Shown piece after piece: positions 2,592 through 11,751 of a DNA stretch of 39,561 nt. The stretch covers positions 1 through 39,561 of the IMG/VR virus record IMGVR_UViG_3300030106_004706. One strand, 5' to 3'. The position numbers and the translations under genes are program-made. The DNA is from a virus. Taxonomy: Duplodnaviria > Caudoviricetes. Every line of letters starts with the position of its first letter. Position 1 is the first letter of the stretch. Under the pieces are notes generated by a model, which worked only from the letters and a program-made list of their open reading frames with translations, searched no databases and was not told the origin of the DNA.

Positions 2592-3513
2592 AATTTAAAA
2601 AATAATTGTAGGTTCGCTGAAGACCTTCTTCAATACCAATCTGTGGATACCATCCAGTCTGCTTAATTCTAGAGACATCCATAACCTTACGCAACGTTCC
2701 GTTAGGTTTACTAGTATCCCACATTATGGCACCTGTGTAACCGACCACATCTGCGACGATTTCAGCAAGGTTCTTAATAGTTATATCAGTTCCCGTACCC
2801 ACATTAACGATATTTTGTGGATCATGATATTCATTCATCAGATGAACACAAGCATCAGCAAGGTCATCTACATACAAGAACTCACGCATCGGAGAACCAT
2901 CACCCCAGCAAGTTACAGTTGGTTGATTGGTTTCTTTTGCCTCATGGAACTTACGAATAAGACCAGGAATGACATGAGAGTTTTCTGGATGAAAGTTGTC
3001 TTTCACACCATATAGATTACAAGGCATCGCAGAGATAGCGTTGAACCCATACTGTTCATGATAGGACTGACACATCTTGATACCAGCAATCTTAGCGATG
3101 GCATAGGCATCATTTGTGGGTTCTAAAGTGCCAGTCAGCAACTGCTCTTCTTTAATTGGAACATTCGTATGCTTAGGGTAAATGCACGATGAACCAAGGA
3201 AAAGAAGTTTCTTGGCACCAGTATAGTAAGCAGCATCTATGACATTACTCTGAATCATCAGATTGTCATAAATGAACTCTGCCTTATGGTTTTGGTTACC
3301 AATAATTCCACCGACCTTGGCCGCGGCAAGAAAAACAAAATCAGGTTGATGAATGGCGAACAGATTGTCTACCTGCTCTTTCTCCCTGAGATCACATTCC
3401 TTACTAGGAATCATGATCAGATTCTTGTACCCTAGTTGACGAAGTTTACGAACAATAGCAGAACCAACAAGACCGTTGTGTCCTGCTACAAAAATTTTAG
3501 AATTATTGTCCAT
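2578..3513 (-). CDS. fcl: GDP-L-fucose synthase
   Basis: [36 protein letters not shown] and [15 protein letters not shown]. Probable start MDNNSK at 3513. Confidence 0.95.
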
Positions 3514-5586: not shown

Positions 5587-5725
5587 CCTCAGGTCTACAT
5601 GCACGCCACTTATTTTTTTACTGGAAATAAGAAACCAGGCGGGAGTATTACCTCCATCCGCACCACCTGATTTTTGAAGAAGCAGGAAACTTTCGGGATT
5701 GAAGGGAACCTTCACCGACCAGGGC
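5586..5725 (-). ncRNA. Structured RNA with two tandem pseudoknot modules, probably of the cyanophage manA/wcaG RNA motif class
   Basis: Closing stem CCCUGGUC/GACCUGAGGG; hairpins GAAGG/CCUUC and GGAG/CUCC; two stem-UUUCYURYUU-stem modules, each followed by an A-rich linker, a loop-complementary strand and UGGYG. It lies upstream of sugar-epimerase genes. Confidence 0.65.
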
Positions 5726-6026: not shown

Positions 6027-6100
6027 TCGGAATGACAGGATTCGAACCTGCGACATCTCGCTCCCAAAGCGAGTGCTCTACCAAACTGAGCTACATTCCG
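6027..6100 (-). tRNA. tRNA-Pro(UGG)
   Basis: CGGAATGTAGCTCAGTTTGGTAGAGCACTCGCTT-TGG-GAGCGAGATGTCGCAGGTTCGAATCCTGTCATTCCGA. CCA is not encoded. Confidence 0.96.
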
Positions 6101-6103
6101 AAG

Positions 6104-6170
6104 TGGTAGTTCCTATCGCCGCTAACCCTGAACTACCAAGGGGGTCACCGCAGTTGAGTTGTCTCTCAAC
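6104..6170 (-). ncRNA. Putative pseudoknotted small RNA leading tRNA-Pro
   Basis: Hairpin GUUGAG/CUCAAC, then stem UGACCC/GGGUUA whose loop UGGUAGUUC pairs over 9 bp with downstream GAACUACCA. Confidence 0.5.
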
Positions 6171-6176
6171 TTGTTT

Positions 6177-6205
6177 AGTATAACACTATTTGTGGTGTTT
6201 CGCAA
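6177..6205 (-). promoter_or_regulatory. Sigma70-type promoter for the pseudoknot RNA and tRNA-Pro
   Basis: TTGCGA-17 bp-TATACT with an extended -10 TG. Confidence 0.7.
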
Positions 6206-6344
6206 ATGGTTCCCAATGCTCCCATCCATACTTATGAACCAAATGCATTCCTATAATAGGAACAAATACAAGAAAGAACCCCATGATACCTAGTACCCAT
6301 GGGGTTTGCATCACAGACCTAACGAACAATTGAACATATGTCAT
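6186..6344 (-). CDS. Small single-pass membrane protein (52 aa)
   Basis: MTYVQLFVRSVMQTPWVLGIMGFFLVFVPIIGMHLVHKYGWEHWEPFAKHHK. Its start overlaps the zwf stop (ATGA). Confidence 0.7.
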   Translation of the reverse strand: MTYVQLFVRSVMQTPWVLGIMGFFLVFVPIIGMHLVHKYGWEHWEPFAKHHK

Positions 6345-7681
6345 GATGGGTAATCCCAATCAGTTATTCGGTCGGTTCTGTATTGTGGTCCCCAGGAACC
6401 AGGCAGATAGATATAAGGAGTAGTGCGTATGGGGCAAGAATCCCCAGTGCAAAGTAAATCATCGACAATCCTCCAGGATTCCATTACTTCATCAGCATGA
6501 ACAAAATGAGACTGATCACAGTTGATAGCATCATACAGAAGCTTCTCATACCCGTCTACTGCTCGGTCTTGGGGATACTCATGGGTGAGAGTGGCGAGTT
6601 CCAGTTCGTCTGATAACCCAGGGGACTTAATATCCATCCTAATATCAAGATGAGGATTAGGTTGAAGACGCATGACAATACGGTCGTTGATTTCTCCATC
6701 ATAGAGTTTCAGTGGTGGTGCTTTAAGTTTGATAACAACTTCAACGCATCCATAAGGCATTTTCTTACCAGTCAGGACACGAAAAGGAACGCCTTCCCAA
6801 CGCCAGTTATCGACGAATAAAGTGCCAGCAACACTGGTAGGAGTACGACTATTAGGATTAACACCCTCTTCATCACGGTAACCTGCATATTGTCCAAGAA
6901 TCATGTCCTCCCCTAAACGAGTAGCAGCAAGTACTTTTGTTTTCTCACGCCTAATTTCTTTGGCGCTCATCTTACATGGTGCTTCCATAGCAATCAAAGA
7001 CAGAACCTGAAGAATATGGTTCTGAAGCATATCTCTTACAGCACCAGCAGTTTCATAATACTGAGCACGTCCATCACACCCAATAGTTTCAGTAGCATAA
7101 ATTTGAACTTCTTCTATGTAATTGCGGTTCCATAAAGGTTCCAGCAGTATGTTGCTAAACCGAGTAGCGAGAATATTATTAACAGTATCTTTGCCAAGAT
7201 AATGGTCAATGCGATAAACCTGTTTCTCGCGTAGATGTCGCTCAACCACAGACTGTAGATGATGAGCAGATTTATAATCGTACCCAAAGGGTTTTTCGAT
7301 AACCACTCTAGACCTTTCCGGGTCGTCAAGGAGTCCTGCTTCTTTGAGATTGACGATAGCATTCTCATATCGTTCTGGTGGTACGGACAGGAAATAAGTA
7401 TTATCTTCTAAGTAATCTGGGAGATGTTTCAAACTCTCAACACAATCTAAATCAGCACACTGATAATCTAGATGATGCAAGAACTCCTCAGGATAATCTC
7501 CCAAAGAGTCTTTCCATTGTTGTGCTGTTGGTTCTCTCCTTGCAGATCCACTAATTACAAAGTTGTCTGGGAGCAAACCTTTCTTCCAGAGTTTATGAAG
7601 TGCTGGTATCAGTTTTCTTTTGCATAGATCTCCAGTAGCACCGAAGATAACTATACCTCTAGTGAGCGGTTCCGTTTCCAT
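6341..7681 (-). CDS. zwf: Glucose-6-phosphate 1-dehydrogenase
   Basis: IFGATGDLCKRKL, EKPFG, RIDHYLGK and RDMLQNH. Probable start METEPL at 7681. Confidence 0.96.
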   Translation of the reverse strand: METEPLTRGIVIFGATGDLCKRKLIPALHKLWKKGLLPDNFVISGSARREPTAQQWKDSLGDYPEEFLHHLDYQCADLDCVESLKHLPDYLEDNTYFLSVPPERYENAIVNLKEAGLLDDPERSRVVIEKPFGYDYKSAHHLQSVVERHLREKQVYRIDHYLGKDTVNNILATRFSNILLEPLWNRNYIEEVQIYATETIGCDGRAQYYETAGAVRDMLQNHILQVLSLIAMEAPCKMSAKEIRREKTKVLAATRLGEDMILGQYAGYRDEEGVNPNSRTPTSVAGTLFVDNWRWEGVPFRVLTGKKMPYGCVEVVIKLKAPPLKLYDGEINDRIVMRLQPNPHLDIRMDIKSPGLSDELELATLTHEYPQDRAVDGYEKLLYDAINCDQSHFVHADEVMESWRIVDDLLCTGDSCPIRTTPYIYLPGSWGPQYRTDRITDWDYPS

Positions 7682-7790
7682 CGTATTTGTCTGAGTCGTA
7701 GTATATATTTTCACCTTTTCGTATCCCGAAATATATCGTGGATAGTACAAACGGTATTGAAATCCAGGTGAGTGCATTAGATAGTATCAT
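7659..7790 (-). CDS. ndhP: NDH-1 small subunit NdhP homolog (43 aa)
   Basis: MILSNALTWISIPFVLSTIYFGIRKGENIYYDSDKYDGNGTAH: one TM helix, then FG...YDSDxYxGNGTAH, matching the cyanobacterial NdhP C-terminus (YDTDxYHGNGSAH). Confidence 0.85.
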   Translation of the reverse strand: MILSNALTWISIPFVLSTIYFGIRKGENIYYDSDKYDGNGTAH

Positions 7791-7849
7791 TTGTTTTTTG
7801 GTGAAGGGCAGTAGGGGCATCCTCTTCCCCCACATCTGTTACAAACCAT
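7787..7849 (-). CDS. Putative 20-aa four-cysteine micropeptide
   Basis: MVCNRCGGRGCPYCPSPKNK. Its TGA overlaps the ndhP ATG (ATGA). Confidence 0.45.
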   Translation of the reverse strand: MVCNRCGGRGCPYCPSPKNK

Positions 7850-7862
7850 CCATTTAGTTTTT

Positions 7863-8912
7863 TTATCGGACATCATGACCTCCAAACATAGCCCTCATTC
7901 CGTTGAGGACTTTATTTGCGAACTTTCCAAGTCTTCGTGACTCAAATCTTGAGTATAGCGCACCGCTGATAACAGGAGCGGGTACACCAAGATCCACAGC
8001 AGCGTGAACAGTCCAACGACCCTCACCAGAGTCTGATACTCCCCCATCAAACTTGCTAAGCTCTCTATCGCCGCGTAGAACATCAGCGGTAAGGTCAAGC
8101 AACCAACTACCAACAACGCTACCCCGACGCCATAACTCAGCAACCTCAGAACAGTCAATATCATATTGATAGTCCTCTGGATTATCCATTGGAGCAACCT
8201 CAGCATCTCCTGCTTTAACATATGCTGACCCAGCATTAGCTTCATGCAGGATATTAAAGCCCTCGGCGTACGCTTGCATGATTCCATATTCGATACCGTT
8301 GTGAACCATTTTTACGAAGTGACCTGCTCCAGGACCTCCACAGTGTAACCAACCATATTCTGCACTGGTTGCTCTAGACTCGGGATCTGTGCGGGGTGCA
8401 GAGGCAATGCCAGGTGCCAGTGCCCTGAAAATGGGAGCACAGACAGATACTGCCCCATTTGCACCACCAACCATAAGACAGTATCCACGCTCCAGACCGT
8501 AAACTCCACCAGAAGTACCGCAGTCAATATATTGGATACCATACTTAGAAAGCCTTTTTGCTCTCCTGCGAGAATCCTTAAAGTTGCTATTGCCATGATC
8601 AATAATAATATCCCCGTCGCTAAGTAATGGTAATAACTCATCAATAGTGTCCTCTACTGTTTCTGCTGGTACAACCATCATAAAGATTCCAGGAGATTTT
8701 GACTCTTCCTGTGTAAGAGTTCCTACACCAGTGTGTACTACTTGAACAAGATTTTCCAAAGAAGTGGTACATCCACTGATATAGCCCTTTTCATATTGTT
8801 CTTCAGCTTTTGCATAATTGTTACGATATCCATGAACTTCGATACCTGCTTTAATCATACGACGAGACATACCCTCGCCCATTCTTCCTAGTCCAATAAT
8901 TCCTACTTTCAT
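7863..8912 (-). CDS. gnd: 6-phosphogluconate dehydrogenase (short type)
   Basis: GIIGLGRMG, IIDHGNS, DCGTSGG, GAGHFVKMVHNGIEYG, DSGEGRWT and MRAMFGGH. Confidence 0.96.
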   Translation of the reverse strand: MKVGIIGLGRMGEGMSRRMIKAGIEVHGYRNNYAKAEEQYEKGYISGCTTSLENLVQVVHTGVGTLTQEESKSPGIFMMVVPAETVEDTIDELLPLLSDGDIIIDHGNSNFKDSRRRAKRLSKYGIQYIDCGTSGGVYGLERGYCLMVGGANGAVSVCAPIFRALAPGIASAPRTDPESRATSAEYGWLHCGGPGAGHFVKMVHNGIEYGIMQAYAEGFNILHEANAGSAYVKAGDAEVAPMDNPEDYQYDIDCSEVAELWRRGSVVGSWLLDLTADVLRGDRELSKFDGGVSDSGEGRWTVHAAVDLGVPAPVISGALYSRFESRRLGKFANKVLNGMRAMFGGHDVR

Positions 8913-9076
8913 AGCACCCTCCCAGGAACATAATTAATTTGATCTAGAACTTCATTGAGAAGTTTTTCATACGATCTAAACAGTTTATCACCTGCAATAA
9001 ATGATCTCTGTTTTTTCCAAAGTGCTTCTGCAAGCATTTGTTTTTCATCTTCTGTGAAATCTTTAAATCGATTCAT
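8909..9076 (-). CDS. Hypothetical protein (55 aa)
   Basis: MNRFKDFTEDEKQMLAEALWKKQRSFIAGDKLF...PGRVL. Its stop overlaps the gnd start (ATGA). Confidence 0.65.
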   Translation of the reverse strand: MNRFKDFTEDEKQMLAEALWKKQRSFIAGDKLFRSYEKLLNEVLDQINYVPGRVL

Positions 9077-9090
9077 GTGATTTTACCTTT

Positions 9091-9318
9091 TTACAGTGAA
9101 ATTTTTAACCATGGTAATAATGGATCTATAACTCCAATAAGTCTTAGAAGACCTTCACTAAAAAGACCAAGAATAAAAAAACCAACAAACATACTGATAA
9201 TCCCAGCATTACGATTATGTTTTCGTATTGCAGTATCAATCATCTCCTGAACTTCTTCTTTTGTTACGTGGTTAGGAAGGTCAACTTTCCTACCGCGCCA
9301 GATCCAACTCTTAGGCAT
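9091..9318 (-). CDS. Small membrane protein of the cyanophage EMIDxAIRKHNRN family
   Basis: QEMIDTAIRKHNRNAGIISMFVGFFILGLFSEGLLRLIGVI. Confidence 0.75.
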   Translation of the reverse strand: MPKSWIWRGRKVDLPNHVTKEEVQEMIDTAIRKHNRNAGIISMFVGFFILGLFSEGLLRLIGVIDPLLPWLKISL

Positions 9319-9817
9319 TTATCATCTCCATAGCATCTTGTAGTTCTTTTGAGTGATGTAATTCATCGTTCAAAATTTCAAGGATTTTATCGTCATGTCC
9401 ATTAAAGGCGAGATGTTTTGCATACGTTTCTGCTGCATGAATCTCTACCTCGTAGGAGAGATGGTAAGCAGACCTAGGAGCCACCCAATAATAAACCACG
9501 TTGACCCAATAGTAGATAAGTACCAGGTGTTTGGCGAAAGCGCGATCCACCCAATAAGCATTACCGCCCCTAGATTCCATATACTCCAGATGTTCTGTTT
9601 CATTGACCGACTGCTCGAAATGTTGTTTCATCAAATATAAATGCTCTGGACCTCGTAGCCCCATAGATTCTCTTAAATGCAACACACTTAGAAAAGCAAA
9701 GTAGGGTGCCCTAGCAATTTCTTCAAGCACCCAGAATCTTTGATAGTCTCTGCCTTGATATAAGAAATCAATGATTGCTACTGTGATGTTTAATGTGATT
9801 GTGTTAATTTTCCTCAT
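9311..9817 (-). CDS. ptox: Plastoquinol terminal oxidase (alternative oxidase family)
   Basis: RFWVLEEIARAPYFAFLSVLHLRES and di-iron motifs NETEHL, EVEIHAAETY and DELHH. Confidence 0.93.
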   Translation of the reverse strand: MRKINTITLNITVAIIDFLYQGRDYQRFWVLEEIARAPYFAFLSVLHLRESMGLRGPEHLYLMKQHFEQSVNETEHLEYMESRGGNAYWVDRAFAKHLVLIYYWVNVVYYWVAPRSAYHLSYEVEIHAAETYAKHLAFNGHDDKILEILNDELHHSKELQDAMEMINA

Positions 9818-9935
9818 CGTCATCCTCATATAAGGGACTGCGATTATGCTTTCTTATTGCATCATCAATCATCTCCTGACACTCTTCACAAGTGACATAA
9901 TGTGCTGGTTTGATTTCATCCATCCTGTGAGACAT
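9804..9935 (-). CDS. Truncated or chimeric paralog of the 9091-9318 protein (43 aa)
   Basis: MSHRMDEIKPAHYVTCEECQEMIDDAIRKHNR-SPLYEDDDEEN. It lacks the TM helix. Confidence 0.6.
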   Translation of the reverse strand: MSHRMDEIKPAHYVTCEECQEMIDDAIRKHNRSPLYEDDDEEN

Positions 9936-10071
9936 TAGGTAGATTGTCCATCGGGTCAGGTCCTCCCGATACTATAGCACAAGCACGTCTGTAATAAAAA
10001 TTTTCAGTATTTCCTGACTCTTCAAGAGCCTCCTTTATTCTCACCCAGTTAGAAAATTCGTCGGGGTGCAT
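9916..10071 (-). CDS. Hypothetical cyanophage protein (51 aa)
   Basis: MHPDEFSNWVRIKEALEESGNTENFYYRRACAIVSGGPDPM... Confidence 0.65.
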   Translation of the reverse strand: MHPDEFSNWVRIKEALEESGNTENFYYRRACAIVSGGPDPMDNLPNVSQDG

Positions 10072-10167
10072 AGTTCTATTTTGAAATACACTATAGCTAT
10101 AATAGTTAATTCCTAAAAAGTTGCCACAATATGTTTATCCCATAACATACATTAAGAAAATATGTAA

Positions 10168-10422
10168 TTATCGCACCTCAAAATCTAATTTTCTAACTTT
10201 TCTCTTTCTTCTTGACTCTTGCCACTGAACATCCTCTGAAGAAAGAAAATTCTCCTTCTTGCTAGTATAAGAGTTAAGCATAACAACCTGACTTAAGTCA
10301 ACCGCAGATATCTTATCTCCACGAATAGTTGTCATATTTGAGCATCCACAAGAGATTGCTCTACTAGGATGCCCAATCAACTCCTTGCCACAGGAGCGGC
10401 ACCTTACCTTTATAGTGTCCAT
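10168..10422 (-). CDS. Small zinc-ribbon protein
   Basis: VRCRSCGKEL...SCGCSN. A late promoter lies upstream. Confidence 0.75.
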   Translation of the reverse strand: MDTIKVRCRSCGKELIGHPSRAISCGCSNMTTIRGDKISAVDLSQVVMLNSYTSKKENFLSSEDVQWQESRRKRKVRKLDFEVR

Positions 10423-10454
10423 GGTATGACGAAATATACGTCTTCATTTTCACT

Positions 10455-10462
10455 TATTTATA
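10455..10462 (-). promoter_or_regulatory. T4-type late promoter
   Basis: TATAAATA directly after tRNA-Val. Confidence 0.65.
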
Positions 10463-10534
10463 TGGGTGAAGAGGGGATTGAACCCCCGACCGCCTCCGTG
10501 TAAAGGAGATGCTCTACCGCTGAGCTATTCACCC
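10463..10534 (-). tRNA. tRNA-Val(UAC)
   Basis: GGGTGAATAGCTCAGCGGTAGAGCATCTCCTT-TAC-ACGGAGGCGGTCGGGGGTTCAATCCCCTCTTCACCCA. Confidence 0.96.
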
Positions 10535-10698
10535 CTGTACCCATATTGTAACATATACTCTACAGTATTGGCAACATCTTCCATTGCATCACGTAGAACT
10601 GGTCGTTGTCCTGCTTCCATCCACCTTGCATCTTTCTCATCAGTAAGAGTCCAACGCCATTGACCCATACTCTTGGAATACCAGAGATTAATTTTCAT
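10525..10698 (-). CDS. Hypothetical protein (57 aa)
   Basis: MKINLWYSKSMGQWRWTLTDE...DAMEDVANTVEY. Its stop lies 10 nt inside tRNA-Val. Confidence 0.7.
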   Translation of the reverse strand: MKINLWYSKSMGQWRWTLTDEKDARWMEAGQRPVLRDAMEDVANTVEYMLQYGYRGE

Positions 10699-10886
10699 TT
10701 TAACCGGTCCTCAGGAAGATATTCAGCACATTTGCCAGGGTTTGCTCTACAATACTTTCTCACTACACCATGAATATCATGTTCCATCGTATGGTGTGCA
10801 TGATTGTGTTGGACTCCAATTAGAATTAAAAAACCCACTAGCAATACGTTGAAGTGAGTAACGGGGGAGAGTAAAATCCTTTTCAT
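10695..10886 (-). CDS. Small membrane-anchored His-rich protein (63 aa)
   Basis: Hydrophobic N-terminus, HNHAHHTMEHDIH and a Cx6C pair. Confidence 0.65.
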   Translation of the reverse strand: MKRILLSPVTHFNVLLVGFLILIGVQHNHAHHTMEHDIHGVVRKYCRANPGKCAEYLPEDRLK

Positions 10887-10887
10887 T

Positions 10888-10913
10888 AAAAAGGGGGGTG
10901 CCGTCGCACCCCC
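10888..10913 (-). terminator. Rho-independent terminator after the OMP gene
   Basis: GGGGGTG-CGACGG-CACCCCC followed by CTTTTT. Confidence 0.8.
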
Positions 10914-10944
10914 ATCATAGCATCTAGATGTATTATTGTCTATA

Positions 10945-11310
10945 TCAGAAGTTGTACTTCAGACCCAGTTTACCACCGACACCCAGATCGTCGGAATCGT
11001 CTACAGTCAGGAAGGAGAGTTCACCATAGACTCCGATAGCATCAGAAACAGGAATACCAACACCTGCTTTACCAGAGAATTCAGTCTCGGTGTCAACACC
11101 ATCAGCAGCGACGATCGCTGGACCCGCCTGGACGTAGTAGGAGGCAGCACCGACTTCTCCCTCGTAACCTACGTGGATGTCTGTCGTTGCTCCGACGTAA
11201 ATATCTCCGGTCCAACCAGCATTGGTTTCCACGTTGACGTAGGGACCTGCAAGGGCAGGTGCTGCCATCAAAGGAGCAGCGGCAGCAAGTGCGATTGCGG
11301 ATTTGAACAT
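10945..11310 (-). CDS. Small outer-membrane beta-barrel protein (cyanobacterial type)
   Basis: Signal peptide ending APALA, alternating amphipathic beta-strands and a C-terminal KLGLKYNF beta-signal. Confidence 0.8.
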   Translation of the reverse strand: MFKSAIALAAAAPLMAAPALAGPYVNVETNAGWTGDIYVGATTDIHVGYEGEVGAASYYVQAGPAIVAADGVDTETEFSGKAGVGIPVSDAIGVYGELSFLTVDDSDDLGVGGKLGLKYNF

Positions 11311-11410
11311 TAGTTAGTACCTCGTTATTTTTGCTTGTGGATTGGTTACCCACAGATGAAAGGGAATCGACATTTCCCTGTATGTAAACCTTTTGTTACA
11401 AAAGGTAAAA

Positions 11411-11418
11411 TATTTATA
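11411..11418 (-). promoter_or_regulatory. T4-type late promoter for the OMP gene
   Basis: TATAAATA followed by the inverted repeat CCTTTTGT-A-ACAAAAGG. Confidence 0.6.
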
Positions 11419-11454
11419 CTAGGTATAATTTCGGATAAACTTTGGATATCCGAA

Positions 11455-11526
11455 AGCGGGAGACGAGATTCGAACTCGCAACAACCTGCTTGGAAGGCAG
11501 GGACTCTACCGTTGAGTTACTTCCGC
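11455..11526 (-). tRNA. tRNA-Gly(UCC)
   Basis: GCGGAAGTAACTCAACGGTAGAGTCCCTGCCT-TCC-AAGCAGGTTGTTGCGAGTTCGAATCTCGTCTCCCGCT. One A-C mismatch in the acceptor stem. Confidence 0.92.
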
Positions 11527-11529
11527 AAG

Positions 11530-11577
11530 TGGTGGGGGAGGTATTCTCCCCGACGCATCCTTCACACGGATGAACAC
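11530..11577 (-). ncRNA. Putative D-armless tRNA-like mini-RNA ending in CCA
   Basis: GUGUU-CAUCC-GUGUGAA-GGAUG-CGUC-GGGGA-GAAUACC-UCCCC-CACCA. Confidence 0.45.
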
Positions 11578-11606
11578 ATTATAAAGGAAAGATGTTATGT
11601 GGTCAA
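11578..11606 (-). promoter_or_regulatory. Sigma70-type promoter for the mini-RNA and tRNA-Gly
   Basis: TTGACC-17 bp-TATAAT. Confidence 0.8.
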
Positions 11607-11679: not shown

Positions 11680-11751
11680 CTTCCCCGGCAGGATTCAAAC
11701 CTGCGACCAGACGATTAACAGTCGTCGGCTCTACCGCTGAGCTACAGAGGA
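11680..11751 (-). tRNA. tRNA-Asn(GUU), possibly degenerate
   Basis: TCCTCTGTAGCTCAGCGGTAGAGCCGACGACT-GTT-AATCGTCTGGTCGCAGGTTTGAATCCTGCCGGGGAAG. T-loop is TTTGAAT and there is a C2-A71 mismatch. Confidence 0.8.

Follow-up and report, generated by a model that had tools for sequence, protein, structure and literature searches.

Why do two different leaders in one viral sequence end in the same seven nucleotides (nt), ACCACTT, directly before a tRNA gene? The question is raised by virus record IMGVR_UViG_3300030106_004706 (Caudoviricetes), whose 39,561 nt were analyzed as a whole and are called the window here. We read this 39.6-kb record as a T4-like cyanophage; it contains zwf, gnd, a PTOX/AOX gene, a cyanophage outer-membrane protein gene, a wcaG RNA and six tRNA genes, all six on the minus strand. 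A sequence-only reading had noted that ACCACTT precedes tRNA-Pro and tRNA-Gly and none of the other four tRNA genes, and this proved correct: the heptamer lies at 6107-6101 and 11533-11527 on the minus strand, each copy abutting tRNA position +1, and the sequences before tRNA-Val, -Thr, -Asn and -Arg are different. The common layout that it described, of promoter, RNA, ACCACTT and tRNA, was also confirmed, with a sigma-70-like promoter in both units and both leaders conserved as RNAs. Our comparisons indicate that two unrelated small-RNA units abut these tRNA genes and that host ribonuclease P (RNase P) probably provides their 3' ends in place of a terminator. Thus, of the earlier proposal that the leaders are matured by piggybacking on tRNA processing, the piggybacking is plausible and is favored by comparison (own promoters, conserved leaders and a tRNA that would act as a 3'-end device), while the part that made the resulting ACCA 3' ends a signal is unlikely. 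The features of the unit before tRNA-Gly are as follows.

11578 to 11606, minus strand: predicted sigma-70-like promoter of unit 2 (TTGACC-17-TATAAT, 11/12), whose -35 box (11601-11606) begins at the last base of tRNA-Thr
11527 to 11571, minus strand: leader 2, a predicted 45-nt small RNA made up of a head, a G+C hairpin and a linker; no Rfam family
11554 to 11573, minus strand: leader 2 head, the 20-nt complement of one tRNA-Val(CAC) anticodon-arm type, 18 nt lying after the predicted +1; predicted 5-bp hairpin with GUG in the loop
11535 to 11551, minus strand: leader 2 G+C hairpin, which forms the terminator stem where relatives are free-standing
11527 to 11533, minus strand: junction 2, ACCACTT, at the position of the U-tract in free-standing copies
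11455 to 11526, minus strand: tRNA-Gly(TCC), with +1 at G11526 and no encoded CCA

Relatives of leader 2 were obtained via phage S-SRM01, with sequence patterns, and by querying with a free-standing copy; leader 2 by itself gave no BLAST match among cultured phages. The patterns matched at least 119 and at least 120 loci, in partly overlapping sets, and yielded 138 distinct units. A promoter-like box and a hairpin were present in 123 of the 138, and these end in a terminator (71 units), in a tRNA (44 units) or otherwise (8 units). Behind the hairpin, the next 8 nt include five or more T in 62 of 77 free units and in none of 44 fused ones, whereas ACCA lay within 8 nt of the hairpin in 2/77 free and 28/44 fused units. 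With a terminator tail in the free units and a tRNA in the fused ones, the tRNA stands in the terminator's place within one family, and the linker of leader 2 is likely a former U-tract that lost its U's. A -35-like box was retained in 43 of the 44 fused relatives, and the occurrence of leader 2 before Gly, Leu or Ser tRNA or before a terminator shows that its conservation does not depend on the tRNA. Cultured Synechococcus phages widely carry the free form; S-RIM8 has a copy with a terminator, whereas the copy in S-SRM01 is fused. Many terminator-ended units lie behind what appears, by eye, to be the end of the capsid gene g23. The predicted single-sequence fold of leader 2 has a modest stability (z-score -1.86). 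In most fused relatives a tRNA-Thr was seen 35-36 nt upstream of the head, and at two loci (L209 and L213) the head abuts tRNA-Thr with no gap and precedes tRNA-Ser, an arrangement in which the RNA would be cut out at both ends.

These observations are consistent with a mechanism in which each unit, consisting of promoter, small RNA, 3-8 nt spacer and tRNA, would be transcribed together with its tRNA from the predicted promoter. In leader 2, the U-less linker would let polymerase read on into tRNA-Gly. Host RNase P would then cut at tRNA +1 and give a leader with a 3'-OH, substituting for a terminator, and exonucleases would trim the released leader to the nearest helix. In leader 1, before tRNA-Pro, such trimming would stop at helix P2 and leave a compact RNA paired at both ends. 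The features of this second unit are given below.

6177 to 6205, minus strand: predicted sigma-70-type promoter of unit 1 (TTGCGA-17-TATACT, 9/12, extended TG)
6101 to 6170, minus strand: leader 1, a predicted 70-nt pseudoknot RNA, from the predicted +1 (G6170) to the RNase P site; no Rfam family
6153 to 6170, minus strand: leader 1 helix P0 (6170-6165 with 6158-6153), starting at the predicted +1; it spans 11-183 nt in relatives
6120 to 6150, minus strand: leader 1 helix P1 (6150-6142 with 6128-6120, one unpaired G.G); 5/8 pairs change on both sides and 100% of cells are paired
6104 to 6138, minus strand: leader 1 pseudoknot helix P2 (6138-6130 with 6112-6104); 4/9 pairs change on both sides and 97.4% of cells are paired; its last four 3' bases are ACCA (6107-6104)
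6101 to 6107, minus strand: junction 1, ACCACTT; ACCA (6107-6104) is paired in P2 and CTT is a single-stranded spacer
6027 to 6100, minus strand: tRNA-Pro(TGG), matched by Rfam, with +1 at C6100 and no encoded CCA

Evidence for the structure of leader 1 comes from covariation; its single-sequence folds had only modest stability (z -0.98 for the entire leader and -2.37 for the 3' hairpin). We aligned the window with 54 of 87 distinct cores, excluding 32 whose P2 is longer and one that duplicates the window's own core; in this alignment 98.6% of the cells were paired and 9/17 pairs had two-sided changes, compared to 0-3 in slid controls. From these compensatory changes leader 1 is predicted to be an H-type pseudoknot with two crossing helices. 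An invariant CCUU loop adjoins invariant GUUC/GGAAC pairs, an arrangement that suggests major-groove triples, though CCTT was also demanded by the regular expression used for leader 1, which missed one true unit (L023). Side observations include two relatives (L041 and L089) in which the 5' helix encloses ~170-180 nt. An HDV-like (hepatitis delta virus-like) or theta ribozyme was considered and disfavored for leader 1, as there is one base (column 26) between P2 and P1, with no P3/L3, and no Rfam ribozyme matched. A suspected likeness to pieces of 5S ribosomal RNA found no support in Rfam, and leader 1 matched no Rfam 15 family at gathering or E-value thresholds.

Many ACG-2014f records share a 54-nt core of leader 1 at 100% identity, and this core is also found in S-SM2, Bellamy, RB11-B, S-SCSM2R, SynMITS9220M01 and S-SKS1. 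In S-SM2, Bellamy and RB11-B leader 1 is fused to a tRNA, and in S-SKS1 it lacks one. Scanning IMG/VR with the leader 1 pattern gave at least 120 loci (~480 estimated), and with the 3' end left unconstrained A[CT]AGGAAC was kept in 109/120 of them. The same pattern matched only 2 sequences in GTDB genomes, both contigs of metagenome-assembled genomes, and thus leader 1 is not a common bacterial riboswitch. A covariance model found a single copy in the window. Among 113 distinct units, a tRNA lies directly behind leader 1 in 90 (86 called by ARAGORN and 4 by pattern), none does in 22, and one runs into the contig end; at the 62 junctions surveyed the tRNA is Arg in 49 and Pro in 13. Since it occurs before Arg and Pro tRNAs, leader 1 moves between tRNAs, and its presence before Arg, Pro or no tRNA shows that it is conserved independently of the tRNA behind it. 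The spacer between leader 1 and tRNA +1 (n=61) is 3 nt in 41 units, 4 nt in 16, and 2 or 5 nt in 4.

Might leader 1 instead act in cis, as a 5' stabilizer or a ligand-binding aptamer for the tRNA or mRNA behind it, and be discarded after cleavage? Leader 1 does head the predicted transcript, with P0, which starts with a G, beginning 6-7 nt after the -10 box in 103/111 units, and in 10 of the 113 units an ATG within 32 nt takes the place of the tRNA; moreover, the invariant unpaired bases could form a pocket. Yet no terminator or ribosome-site switch lies in the 2-5 nt between leader 1 and tRNA, the tRNA behind it varies, and in units of the S-SKS1 type another promoter-like site follows directly behind leader 1. 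We therefore regard the cis role as rather unlikely. Of its possible roles, that of a stable protein-binding RNA seems the most likely, at somewhat less than an even chance.

Both leaders thus have the make-up expected of a non-coding RNA matured from a pre-tRNA leader, as far as sequence can indicate: they lie on the tRNA's strand, have no terminator before it and a short spacer, and are conserved independently of it. Neither matched any Rfam 15 family at gathering or E-value thresholds, and they appear to be unrelated, uncatalogued families of cyanophage RNA. They also occur mostly apart. Leader 1 was held by 2/28 records with fused leader 2, and the leader 2 head by 2/18 records with leader 1, most of these records being fragments, and 6/7 named GenBank genomes lack the leader 2 head; because most of the named genomes lack the partner, the two leaders are not one system.

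What, then, of the common ACCACTT? The earlier reading had called for a survey of the bases 5' of tRNAs in related phages, and ACCA was indeed enriched: it occupies positions -7 to -4 at 26/62 leader 1 and 21/39 leader 2 junctions, versus 1/222 for other tRNAs (1/161 other leaders and 0/61 tRNA-tRNA spacers). For this survey tRNA +1 was fixed by acceptor pairing, tRNAs that failed it or lay near a locus edge were excluded, and junctions were de-duplicated on 30 nt. The full heptamer was kept less well, at 4/62 leader 1 and 12/39 leader 2 junctions, so that its conservation in relatives was borne out only in part; two other contigs, which match the window at 79-92% identity and carry both units, show ACCACTT at each of the two junctions. 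ACCACTT is not enriched across the window (8 observed, 6.27 expected). Among background pairs of cyanophage leaders of two different tRNA types, 15/21,126 had a common 7-mer (0.07%, or ~1% over the window's 15 pairs), and when one junction was drawn from each leader family the two matched in 2.8% of draws. The match between the window's two junctions is unusual but not extreme.

The claim that ACCA is a conserved 3'-end signal was not borne out, as it is absent from -7 to -4 at 36/62 leader 1 and 18/39 leader 2 junctions and in leader 1 is a helix strand. If it were a common signal, RNase P cleavage and trimming would leave tRNA-like ACCA-3' ends to be read by CCA-handling enzymes or synthetases. 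The enrichment is what such a signal would give, the end of P2 coincides with the last A of ACCA, and the G+C hairpin of leader 2 followed by ACCA resembles an acceptor microhelix in the 28 fused units that have it. In leader 1, however, ACCA falls in alignment columns 48-51, the 3' strand of P2, where it is base-paired and is swapped for other letters with compensatory changes: the variants GGTG/CACC, GCTA/TAGC, CCTG/CAGG, GACG/CGTC and GTAG/CTAC preserve the pairing, in most cases without ACCA. ACCA also follows the core in 7/22 leader 1 units that have no tRNA (48/90 of those that do), and free copies of leader 2, judged by their conservation, work without it. A T-arm and a free 5' acceptor strand are missing from both RNAs, and a single-stranded NCCA after an acceptor stem was not found, as the hairpin-ACCA arrangement of leader 2 is limited to those 28 of 44 fused units and is often folded back on the head. 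Furthermore, tRNA genes of these phages rarely encode CCA (4/179, a rough count). A signal role for the letters is thus most improbable, and ACCA appears, from these comparisons, dispensable though common in both families.

RNase P gives a leader with a 3'-OH and favors U at -1, and N(-4) to N(-7) are bound by the enzyme's protein subunit (PMC4919922). ACCACUU could accordingly be a favored RNase P leader on which both families converged where a bulky structure adjoins the tRNA. ACCA sits exactly at -7 to -4, the stretch bound by RnpA, it is enriched in both families, and leader preferences vary among species (PMC4919922); nevertheless, 221/222 other phage tRNA leaders do without it, its bases are paired in leader 1, and the ACCA pairs are no better kept than those of P1 (42-51/55 versus 24-55/55). 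Convergence on the letters is therefore unlikely. What the junctions appear to conserve is geometry and make-up, namely a short, nearly G-free and mostly U-ending spacer, not the letters ACCA: G makes up 0% (leader 2) and 4% (leader 1) of the last 7 nt before the tRNA, and U stands at -1 in 39/39 leader 2 junctions and in 68% of the 62 leader 1 junctions. A G-poor spacer with U at -1 agrees with the known preferences of RNase P. Cyanobacterial RNase P lacks the GGU that reads 3'-RCCA and favors CCA-less substrates (PMC4264200). The common ACCACTT is probably coincidental, being a helix strand in leader 1 and a decayed terminator in leader 2; the lean toward ACCA represents two lineage-level events, each separately explained, and the ACCA finding alone is probably ordinary.

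The head of leader 2 offers a candidate function for the released RNA. In the window it is the exact 20-nt complement of the anticodon arm in 6/143 distinct bacterial or proviral tRNA-Val(CAC) sequences, and its best match to any other isoacceptor was 9 nt (523 tRNAs). Predicted duplex energies of the window's head were -39.4 kcal/mol with the fully matching arm type, -27.9 kcal/mol with the commoner arm type and -25.5 kcal/mol with the phage's own Val(UAC). The last is a tRNA encoded in the window, which pairs less well with the head:

10463 to 10534, minus strand: phage tRNA-Val(TAC)

The GGAUG variant of the head, which the window carries, occurs in 23/44 fused units and in 0/79 other leader 2 units. 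We consider it an even chance that the released leader 2 pairs with the anticodon arm of the GUG-reading tRNA-Val and takes it out of use, in which case the phage's tRNA-Val(UAC) would substitute for the sequestered host tRNA. GTG is the phage's rarest valine codon (94/668 valine codons in 35 open reading frames (ORFs) of the window). In Synechococcus WH5701 tRNA-Val(TAC) was reported as below detection (PMC11726456), a condition that would make Val(CAC) a sensitive target. We also observed, judging likeness by eye, that one slot holds either a valine tRNA or the putative anti-valine RNA. A same-looking end of a small ORF (10525-10698 in the window) precedes tRNA-Val(TAC) both in the window and in S-SRM01 (L004:5228-5300); in RB11-B and G030 (L699 and L700) what comes next is a promoter, then a leader-2-type head and then a terminator.

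A different target for the head would be the host small RNA Yfr1, for which leader 2 could serve as a sponge like the host's Yfr2. Yfr2 blocks Yfr1 via pairing (PMC6778093), and the head complements the 11-nt Yfr1 motif (PMC2190773) if two inserted bases are allowed. The two bulges that this needs leave a duplex of -11.5 kcal/mol, a value for the bare 11-nt motif, a shorter partner and thus not like-for-like, against -28 to -39 kcal/mol with tRNA-Val(CAC), and one of the inserted bases, an A, is precisely the one needed to match the tRNA loop. Moreover, 12 matches without bulges lacked, by eye, the promoter-hairpin layout. A Yfr1 sponge thus seems very unlikely. Leader 2 does resemble cyanobacterial Yfr2, the partner of Yfr1, in having a short conserved 5' motif that would pair with an abundant host RNA (PMC6778093, PMC2662882); it differs in lacking the second conserved loop element, in its variable hairpin loop, in its unbulged fit to tRNA-Val(CAC) and in its lack of an Rfam match.

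Several observations weigh against release by RNase P and against tRNA-Val(CAC) as the target. The tRNA-Val(CAC) set came from metagenome and viral contigs and was retrieved with a pattern derived from the head itself; the neighbors of 16 matching tRNA-Val(CAC) genes showed no cyanobacterial sign, and none of these genes could be assigned to a cyanobacterium. For the window's GGAUG variant, the energy with the commoner arm lies close to that with the phage's own Val(UAC). In leader 1, a tRNA is missing behind 22 of the 113 units, and a U-tract was seen in only 4 of these 22. The sequences compared are related, and their counts are not independent events; the enrichment of ACCA, together with its retention in both units of two relatives, leaves room for weak selection on the letters. 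Leaders freed by RNase P may be degraded. The 19 RNA runs listed were available as contigs only, from which RNA ends cannot be read, and none contained half of the query's sequence words. In two RNA libraries from one study, leader 2 and tRNA-Gly are joined on contigs of close relatives, and as contigs these show neither transcription nor ends.

Related arrangements are known. T4 RNAC and RNAD are reportedly cut from tRNA precursors and carry CCA ends. They are likewise small RNAs from the tRNA region of a T4-like phage, with an unknown role (PMC3014915, PMC9697503); the RNAs described here are shorter, have their own predicted promoters and also occur without a tRNA. The conserved structured RNAs of T4-like cyanophages, manA (RF01745), abiF (RF03085) and wcaG (RF01761), match neither leader. 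Of these, manA and wcaG were reported as candidates in 5' untranslated regions (PMC2864571), and manA and abiF also abut tRNAs in relatives: manA lies tightly between two tRNAs in RB11-B and ACG-2014f (L002:3130-3340 and L007:3132-3342), and abiF ends 5 nt before tRNA-Arg in S-SRM01 (L004:2519-2555). Processing of the adjoining tRNAs may release these RNAs too. Bellamy has further hairpin-rich spacers before tRNA-Gly and tRNA-Asn (L009:2849-2899 and 2971-3096), with no Rfam match.

In MALAT1, NEAT1 and plant precursors that join a tRNA to a small nucleolar RNA, a tRNA-processing enzyme cuts at a tRNA shape and thereby makes the end of a neighboring non-coding RNA, and in MALAT1 a triple helix just upstream protects the 3' end. 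The invariant CCUU/GUUC/GGAAC core of leader 1, with its predicted triple helix, may act likewise; those systems are eukaryotic and share no homology with the leaders, and here the tRNAs are real and phage-encoded. HDV-like (theta) ribozymes lie 3' of phage tRNAs and form a nested double pseudoknot. Leader 1 is likewise a small, predicted pseudoknotted RNA adjoining a phage tRNA, but lies 5' of it and has no P3/L3. Neither RNA was described in the surveyed literature, as far as its accessible text extends, and the supplements of a viral RNA survey may hold such motifs (PMC10690425).

In the region around tRNA-Pro, the closest cultured matches were Synechococcus phages. The wcaG RNA (RF01761, 90 bits) lies at 5595-5694 on the minus strand, upstream of a nucleotide-sugar epimerase/dehydratase gene. 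The auxiliary genes zwf, gnd and PTOX/AOX and the cyanophage outer-membrane beta-barrel gene occupy 6341-9829 and 10945-11310 on the minus strand, the beta-barrel gene directly after tRNA-Gly; in S-SRM01 a porin gene takes that place. tRNA-Asn(GTT), at 11680-11751 on the minus strand, scored lowest against Rfam (57.5); its acceptor stem contains a mismatch and its T-loop has a T for the usual C.

Altogether, the shared feature is real. In its fullest form, which we offer as a speculation somewhat unlikely to hold in all its parts, RNase P would be a release tool for phage regulatory RNAs whose terminators were swapped for tRNA genes, and the products would be an anti-tRNA-Val(CAC) RNA, acting with the phage's tRNA-Val(UAC), and a triple-helix pseudoknot sealed at both ends that decoys a host protein. 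Pre-tRNA leaders are usually regarded as waste. The exchange of a terminator for a tRNA gene within one RNA family amounts to a clean natural experiment on whether RNase P makes 3' ends for small RNAs of bacterial viruses, and it offers a way into a long-standing question, the role of the small RNAs in the tRNA regions of T4-like phages. Two RNA families of abundant aquatic phages thereby become testable in cultured systems (S-SM2, Bellamy, RB11-B, S-SRM01 and S-RIM8), and the inactivation of a host tRNA by pairing with leader 2, if true, would be an unusual viral remodeling of translation.

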